Shown: piece after piece, positions 10,672 to 10,772 of the stretch
Numbering within the stretch: the first letter of the stretch is position 1
How the letters are laid out: the number at the start of each line of letters is the position of its first letter
NCBI RefSeq assembly: GCF_003334785.1
Contig: NZ_QOWV01000010.1
Source: Escherichia coli
Lineage (GTDB): Bacteria; Pseudomonadota; Gammaproteobacteria; Enterobacterales; Enterobacteriaceae
DNA: 64,000 nt
Strand: one strand, 5' to 3'
Program-made: the position numbers and the translations under genes
The notes under the pieces: generated by a model
Database searches by the model: none
The model's input: only the letters and a program-made list of their open reading frames with translations
What the model was told of the DNA's origin: nothing

Positions 10672-10740
10672 TAGGGGCTGATTGGCTTCGATGCCGCCTT
10701 TTCCCCTCACCCTAACCCTCTCCCCAGAGGGGCGAGGGGA

Positions 10741-10766
10741 CCGATCGCGCTCAATGTTGCGATCGG
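10741..10766. terminator. Perfect 8-bp inverted repeat CCGATCGC-N10-GCGATCGG between convergent tusA and zntA
   Basis: Read directly in the intergenic region; followed by TTTG on + strand; a second imperfect palindrome CCCTCTCCCC/GGGGCGAGGG lies at about 10706-10739. Confidence 0.5.
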
Positions 10767-10772
10767 TTTGCC

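Follow-up and report, generated by a model that had tools for sequence, protein, structure and literature searches.

The closest described relatives of the element considered here belong to the short palindromic repeats of Escherichia coli. A survey of stem-loop repeat families gives BoxC as a 56-bp unit present in 32 copies. In E. coli K-12 MG1655, 23 TMECO motifs with the consensus 5'-CCCTCNCCC N3-6 GGGNGAGGG N3 GGGNGAGGG[G/T/C/-]-3' have been listed by Holder et al. (2015, NAR, PMC4666352, Table 1), who treat TMECO, the 1990s BoxC repeat, and the PIT elements of Hoyne et al. (2000) as the same element. TMECO loci are more variable than control loci, and the family has been linked to local genomic instability (Holder et al., 2015, PMC4666352). 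PIT elements, as far as the citation of Hoyne and Maher (2002) in Holder et al. (PMC4666352) goes, have neither promoter nor terminator activity. The same elements reappear in the HPG1 class, described as a "G-quadruplex/hairpin switch" (Kaplan et al., 2016, NAR, PMC5100583).

REP/BIME (PU) elements resemble BoxC in that both are short GC-rich palindromic repeats of 3'UTRs and convergent gaps, both are transcribed as hairpins, and the presence of both varies between strains. However, their sequences are unrelated, BoxC consists of three blocks rather than a simple stem, and about 20-30 BoxC copies per genome contrast with several hundred of REP. To our knowledge, no transposase has been assigned to BoxC.

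The locus analysed here is the gap between the tusA and zntA genes in a 64,000-nucleotide stretch of E. coli DNA (below, the window, to which all positions refer unless MG1655 is named). The window corresponds to the reverse complement of NC_000913.3 3,603,000-3,611,000 of E. coli K-12 MG1655, with two mismatches in 8,001 bases. The genes are convergent, and their stop codons are separated by a 101-bp gap at 10672-10772, exactly where a reading of this DNA from the letters alone (below, the sequence-only reading) had placed it; RefSeq carries no annotation under the gap. The features needed for what follows are listed here, with the source of each assignment in parentheses.

10426-10671, plus strand: tusA coding sequence, sulfur transfer protein, 81 aa (ORF list, MG1655 annotation b3470, coordinate mapping).
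10660-10701, plus strand: SL1, predicted hairpin pairing AAAGGCGG (10660-10667) with CCGCCTTT (10694-10701) (inverted repeat finder, predicted fold).
10701 to ~10760, no strand assigned: full BoxC unit of this locus, core plus conserved tail (10-copy alignment).
10703-10738, G-rich strand minus, i.e., zntA sense: BoxC/PIT/TMECO core (tables of Holder et al., 2015 and Kaplan et al., 2016, consensus match).
10704-10712, 10716-10725 and 10729-10738, plus strand: BoxC blocks CCCTCACCC, CCCTCTCCCC and GGGGCGAGGG, respectively, separated by loops TAA and AGA (sequence).
10737, minus strand: zntA transcript end (SMRT-Cappable-seq, PMC6131387, Supplementary Data 1).
10740-10748 and 10759-10767, no strand assigned: palindrome 2 (SL3), perfect 9-bp stem of ACCGATCGC and GCGATCGGT around a 10-nt loop (inverted repeat finder).
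10769-10780, dominant position 10776, plus strand: tusA mRNA 3' terminus, within UUUGCCUUAUCU (TRS paper, PMC10687069, Supplementary Data 3 and 4).
10773-12971, minus strand: zntA coding sequence, Zn/Cd/Pb P-type ATPase, 732 aa (ORF list, MG1655 annotation b3469).

Compared with dinucleotide shuffles, the 101-nt gap yields z-scores of -3.76 (plus strand) and -3.10 (minus strand), that is, its predicted structure exceeds chance. In the tusA-sense RNA three successive stem-loops are predicted, namely, SL1, BoxC (palindrome 1), and palindrome 2, and the core strings of the palindromes occur once in the window against zero occurrences expected. We consider it likely that BoxC is here a passenger repeat lying beside an ordinary, somewhat bidirectional, 3'-end hairpin, which is palindrome 2.

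General scans of the gap had little to say. Permissive Rfam scans produced nothing near threshold, the best match being Hrs13 (19.7 bits against a gathering score of 52). A consensus scan for terminators and promoters found no terminator and no sigma-70-like promoter in the gap; its loop limit of 8 nt excludes palindrome 2, and hence the blank for terminators is of little weight. No match to the REP consensus (GCCGGATGCGGCG...CCGGCCTAC type) was seen in the gap. Elsewhere in the window, REP copies with one to three mismatches to the consensus lie at 20927-20960 (plus strand), 26825-26858 (minus strand), and 54966-54999 (plus strand), and the RyhB small RNA gene (37658-37722, plus strand; Rfam RF00057, 83.1 bits) is the sole above-threshold Rfam match.

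Palindrome 1, CCCTCTCCCC-AGA-GGGGCGAGGG, occupies 10716-10738 and contains one T/C mismatch. The sequence-only reading had noted the single mismatch correctly; the range it gave, about 10706-10739, takes in the upstream block CCCTCACCC as well. The repeat finder reports an alternative pairing, in which TCCCCTCACCC (10702-10712) is matched with GGGCGAGGGGA (10730-10740) over 11 nt with 91% complementarity. As this pairing uses the G-block of palindrome 1, two C-blocks compete for one G-block on the plus strand, which, judged by the order of the blocks, is the three-block BoxC/TMECO layout. On the minus strand the core reads CCCTCGCCC-CTCTG-GGGAGAGGG-TTA-GGGTGAGGG-G and conforms to the TMECO consensus. 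Moreover, positions 10703-10738 are the exact reverse complement of TMECO no. 16 (CCCTCGCCCCTCTGGGGAGAGGGTTAGGGTGAGGGG, MG1655 3,608,684-3,608,719), classified as type A with one mismatch (Holder et al., 2015, PMC4666352, Table 1). The same copy, with midpoint 3,608,708 between zntA and tusA, is HPGQ no. 40, one of those grouped in the HPG1 class (Kaplan et al., 2016, PMC5100583). It lies entirely between the tusA and zntA stops, in line with the description of the family as always intergenic, and shares with the described BoxC/PIT/TMECO/HPG1 elements the three-block layout, the TTA loop, the intergenic position, and the conserved tail, being identical to them in kind. Thus, palindrome 1 belongs to this family on every sequence criterion tested, and the element itself is already known: four descriptions exist, each under a different name, and two published tables include the tusA-zntA copy.

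With the 101-bp gap as a query, 87,249 places were found in 5,426 out of 5,426 complete E. coli genomes, nearly all of them chromosomal, with a median of 17 and a maximum of 32 places per genome, and 20 in K-12-like strains. Since every genome yields matches at multiple places, the palindrome 1 segment is a dispersed repeat. The membership in a small dispersed repeat family that the sequence-only reading had suspected therefore holds for 10701 to ~10760, the part that contains TMECO no. 16 as its core, and the genome-wide search that it had proposed shows that the segment is not unique. The matches of other copies span query positions 21-81, corresponding to 10692-10752. When nine other MG1655 type-A copies and the tusA-zntA copy (10 in total) were aligned in register, similarity began abruptly at ~10701, the core hardly varied, and similarity tapered off to the right. 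Past the core, a tail is conserved over ~20 nt, with the family form GACCGtcCGtGC.c..tTTtg (lower case denotes less conserved positions); at tusA-zntA it reads GACCGATCGCGCTCAATGTTG and ends at ~10760. Conservation thus extends beyond the triplex core, covering 10701 to ~10760 at this locus, to be compared with the literature unit of 56 bp, and the sequence to the left of BoxC is not common to other copies.

Of the ten MG1655 type-A copies examined, six have convergent neighbouring genes and none has divergent ones. This bias fits a repeat that persists where little harm is done, and agrees with the reported variability of TMECO loci (Holder et al., 2015). One further arrangement was seen in the MG1655 yjdP/phnP gap (L009), where a two-block hairpin, CCCTCTCCCC-ATT-GGGGTGAGGGG, stands ~45 nt beyond a full BoxC core and, by its sequence, looks like the decayed half of an inverted pair of BoxC copies.

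The second palindrome is of a different nature. The sequence-only reading had described it as perfect and located it at 10741-10766, and CCGATCGC-N10-GCGATCGG is found at exactly these positions, the pairing extending by one step to the 9-bp stem at 10740-10767. The predicted fold has -18.1 kcal/mol in the tusA sense (z = -3.9, none of 200 shuffles being as good) and -16.9 kcal/mol in the zntA sense. Its left arm lies inside the BoxC tail, and its right arm in unique sequence. No comparable hairpin was found on the tails of the nine other MG1655 copies, which fold into unrelated shapes with -4.9 to -16.1 kcal/mol, versus -20.6 kcal/mol at tusA-zntA, and a 60-nt probe over palindrome 2 and the zntA stop is single-copy, matching 4,571 out of 5,426 genomes (84%), 3,717 of them at >=99% identity. 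Taken together, these two observations make palindrome 2 specific to the tusA-zntA locus. What sets this copy apart from the family is that its tail doubles as an arm of an adjoining unique hairpin, which is the case for none out of nine other MG1655 copies. The possibility that palindrome 2 is itself a part of the BoxC repeat was considered and rejected, given that other copies share only the first ~20 nt of the tail and that the probe is single-copy.

The flanks of palindrome 2 differ between the strands. In the tusA sense the stem is followed by UUUGCCUUAUCU, with only three consecutive U residues (UUU, then GCCUUAU). In the zntA sense, due to the upstream flank GGGG, the RNA continues as CCCCUCGCC, which contains no U-tract. 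There is no A-tract upstream of the stem, so that the U-tract has no counterpart in the zntA sense, and palindrome 2 does not show the flanks of a bidirectional intrinsic terminator, in which an A-tract precedes the hairpin and a U-tract follows it.

The tusA-zntA gap comes in at least three length alleles in E. coli, of 101 bp, ~260-268 bp, and 555 bp, the K-12-type junction being absent from 16% of the 5,426 genomes. In the intermediate allele (L012, strain DETEC-P793, and L013), ~160 bp of REP elements are situated between the palindrome 2 region and the zntA stop. The 555-bp gap (L014) holds REP elements and an annotated 102-aa hypothetical ORF, while its BoxC core is almost wholly deleted, and Escherichia albertii (L017) resembles this long allele, with a truncated core. 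In a Pseudocitrobacter metagenome bin (L045), this position is occupied by a complete BoxC carrying the same tail. The core at this locus is therefore full in K-12 and L045, truncated in L017, and nearly gone in L014, the tail being kept in all of them. Among these relatives we found no clean empty site that would reveal BoxC as an insertion with target duplication, and saw progressive deletion of the core instead.

In these long alleles the tail reads ACCGATCGCGCTCAATATTGCGGCTTGCAATCGGTTTG. Compared with this tail, the K-12 form shows a 7-nt deletion in the loop and a single base change; the two combined yield the perfect 9-bp stem. Palindrome 2 is present in a degraded form, with 6-8 out of nine pairs and a longer loop, in E. 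albertii and in the alleles found in 16% of E. coli. Among the E. coli alleles, E. albertii, and L045 there are no compensatory pairs, only mismatches and changes in loop length; hence, evolutionary support for the structure does not reach beyond the K-12-type allele.

Several variants of the core and of the gap were recorded in addition. In L013 (E. coli Z1323HEC0423), an 8-bp deletion removes most of the first C-block of BoxC and leaves a plain hairpin, and in ST131, O157, and other strains the G-block has changed from GGGG to GGAG; the core is evidently under no tight constraint, to judge from such variants. Other enterobacteria differ widely in the size of the tusA-zntA gap, with overlapping stops at one extreme and more than 1 kb at the other. 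REP elements fill the same gap in Citrobacter and Klebsiella, as they do in some of the non-K-12-type 16% of E. coli, and simple hairpins are found elsewhere. The short gaps of Enterobacter soli (L021) and Enterobacteriaceae RIT691 (L079) hold only two-block hairpins, CCTCTCCC-ACA-GGGAGAGG and CCCTCTCCC-TTT-AGGAGAGGG, respectively, each of which resembles in sequence the hairpin half of a type-B BoxC lacking the third block. In eight further loci from Pantoea, Kosakonia, and others (L064, L067, L070, L071, L075, L081, L084, L091), a stop-codon walk shows that the tusA and zntA frames overlap at their ends and leave no gap, and so the transcript ends must fall inside the neighbouring gene.

These data bear on the possibility that BoxC acts here as DNA, with a triplex or G-quadruplex on the G-rich strand stalling replication or transcription and making the site a rearrangement hotspot, as proposed by Holder et al., or a regulatory switch, as proposed by Kaplan et al., the RNA hairpins then being incidental. 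CD and NMR have revealed triplexes of type A "mm" oligonucleotides in vitro (PMC4666352), CD evidence exists for the G4/hairpin switch (PMC5100583), and TMECO loci do vary more than controls (PMC4666352). The three or more length alleles, in which the BoxC core decays by deletion and the flanks persist, point in the same direction. On the other hand, neither duplex DNA nor in vivo DMS footprinting gave a triplex signature (Holder et al., PMC4666352), and an earlier study reports no in vivo effects. Furthermore, the site is not highly unstable, given that the K-12-type junction persists in 84% of genomes (in 3,717 at >=99% identity), and the length variation mostly comes from gain and loss of REP elements and of the small ORF, not from BoxC. 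We consider such action at the DNA level unlikely to be the explanation of the locus.

Published transcript maps place the 3' ends of both genes at palindrome 2. According to the TRS data, the tusA terminus lies on the MG1655 minus strand at 3,608,642-3,608,653, with the dominant position 3,608,646, a 3'UTR of 106 nt, and the class "Distant primary," which means that there is no terminus within the first 100 nt past the stop (PMC10687069). It follows that the tusA RNA runs through SL1 and BoxC. The dominant end, 10776, is 9 nt past the last paired base of palindrome 2 (10767), in UUUGCCUUAU / UUUGCCUUAUC, and thus falls in the range of 7-9 nt past the stem that is characteristic of intrinsic terminators. 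For zntA, SMRT-Cappable-seq gives a transcript with the TSS at 3,606,421 and a TTS at 3,608,685, labelled "novelTTS" (PMC6131387). Out of 184 reads from this TSS, 15 stop at the called TTS, 64 stop no more than 50 bp past it, and 38 continue for 50 bp or more, with a median extension of 187 bp (PMC6131387). Read in the zntA direction, the called end (10737) follows palindrome 2 by 3 nt and falls on the opening bases of BoxC; the next 50 nt take in BoxC together with the proximal arm of SL1. Termination of zntA is leaky, and the end at palindrome 2 is a minor one (15 out of 184 reads).

SL1, which the sequence-only reading had not mentioned, overlaps the last tusA codons and the stop, is followed by TCCCC, and was found only at the tusA-zntA locus. 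Its predicted fold has -21.7 kcal/mol with flanks (z = -1.9), the flanks being AAA and TTTT (UUUU in RNA). By the look of its sequence it is more like a bidirectional terminator than palindrome 2, yet the tusA RNA reads through it. Some zntA transcripts that end up to 50 nt past the called position may do so because of SL1.

Palindrome 2 shares with intrinsic terminators the GC-rich 9-bp stem, the U-rich stretch in the tusA sense, and the 3' end 9 nt downstream, and with bidirectional terminators the overlap of convergent transcripts by ~40 nt across one hairpin. It departs from both in its short U-tract, the lack of an upstream A-tract, and its 10-nt loop, and termination of zntA is leaky and dispersed. 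The bidirectional terminator suggested by the sequence-only reading is thus approximately right if restricted to palindrome 2, with the tusA end at 10776 and the zntA end at 10737; it does not extend to BoxC, which is not a terminator, and it is weakened by the zntA side, which lacks a U-tract and is leaky, as well as by the curated Term-seq list of Adams et al. (2021), which has no end here. The check by 3'-end mapping that was proposed along with it comes out positive in the published maps, where the tusA and zntA ends both fall on the segment or right beside it.

The blank in that list covers the whole range 3,608,6xx-3,608,7xx and includes the absence of any tusA entry; it may reflect only low expression. 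The TERMITe supplements likewise contain no tusA or zntA entry. A Rho-dependent region is reported at 3,607,955 on the minus strand, approximately 11467 on the plus strand of the window, which lies within zntA on the antisense strand (Adams et al., 2021). Its location suggests some tusA read-through, and it is probably a backstop for transcripts that pass palindrome 2.

Could the whole segment of 60-100 bp, BoxC included, be one bidirectional intrinsic terminator that evolved for tusA and zntA? RNA from either strand is strongly structured, the two mRNAs have their 3' ends in or beside the segment, and 64 zntA reads end in the 50 nt spanning BoxC and SL1. However, BoxC occurs at ~17-23 places per genome, whether between tandem genes, inside operons, or between convergent genes, and no U-run follows it on either strand. 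The well-expressed adk copy (497,843-497,878) is instructive in this respect: the Term-seq 3' end is at 497,939/40, following a separate canonical terminator ~60 nt beyond BoxC, and none is found at BoxC, so that this copy is read through, as is the copy downstream of tusA. Published tests of PIT elements, known here through their citation, also found no terminator activity. We therefore regard a single terminator as very unlikely.

A transcription start at 3,608,702 on the minus strand (Thomason et al., 2015, in the form in which TRS Supplementary Data 4 lists it, PMC10687069) corresponds to 10720 on the plus strand, inside BoxC, and lies 57 nt upstream of the tusA 3' terminus. It could mark a short RNA derived from the 3'UTR or a processing end protected by structure, and the reading of BoxC as a passenger beside a 3'-end hairpin does not account for it. 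That BoxC and palindrome 2 form an sRNA of ~57 nt from the tusA 3'UTR, starting at 10720 and terminating at 10776, is highly improbable: the read density of the 3'UTR is about twice that of the coding sequence (PMC10687069), and palindrome 2 with its U-rich tail resembles an sRNA terminator and gives the weak Hrs13 match, but tusA is not flagged as an outlier in the 3'UTR-versus-coding analysis (PMC10687069), the region contains no sigma-70-like promoter, PIT elements are cited as being without promoter activity, the Hrs13 score is far below the gathering score, and the start signal could be a structure-protected 5' end from processing. The narrower candidate, a conserved Hrs13-like sRNA, was rejected, with no matches at 20 tusA loci of other enterobacterial species, including Pantoea and an Erwinia-named isolate; the Hrs13 match is a generic likeness between terminator hairpins.

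Returning to BoxC as a passenger repeat beside palindrome 2, we would describe the gap as three stacked hairpins of different origins. BoxC has long been recognised as a non-coding repeat dispersed through the intergenic regions of E. coli and related enterobacteria; it is made up of one C-rich block, two G-rich blocks, and a tail of ~20 nt, its single-stranded DNA can adopt a hairpin, a purine-motif triplex, or a G-quadruplex, and its RNA folds into a stable hairpin. Here it would ride as a passenger in the shared 3' region of tusA and zntA, with polymerase transcribing through it, and would not itself act as a terminator. In the tusA direction, palindrome 2 and the following UUUGCCUUAU would behave as an intrinsic terminator, because the tusA mRNA ends 9 nt past the stem. 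In the zntA direction, with the called end 3 nt past the stem, more ends spread over 50 nt across BoxC and SL1, and about a third of the transcripts passing through, the hairpins would either stop polymerase weakly and non-canonically or, if termination occurs at a more distal site, hold up 3' exonucleases. The identity of the repeat, its copy number and extent, the single copy of palindrome 2, and the 3'-end positions in the published maps are shown; how transcription terminates on either strand, and that BoxC lacks a dedicated function at this locus, is what we infer. The passenger status in particular is an argument from absence of evidence, and BoxC may still have a function at the DNA level.

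All this matters little beyond annotation, as the essentials have already been published. The segment splits cleanly into a passenger BoxC and an adjoining single-copy hairpin at both mRNA ends, and the record would gain from entries for 10701-10760 as BoxC and for 10740-10767 as the tusA terminator. It is mildly interesting that the stem of the terminator is partly built from the tail of the repeat. A further and distinctly unlikely version of events is that the BoxC tail has been recruited as the 5' arm of the hairpin that now sets the 3' ends of tusA and zntA, and that the start inside BoxC may yield a short 3'UTR RNA. If this recruitment were true, and if other copies behaved alike, the spread of BoxC would be a source of new terminators or 3'UTR structures rather than the spread of a repeat that is inert or does no more than destabilise.
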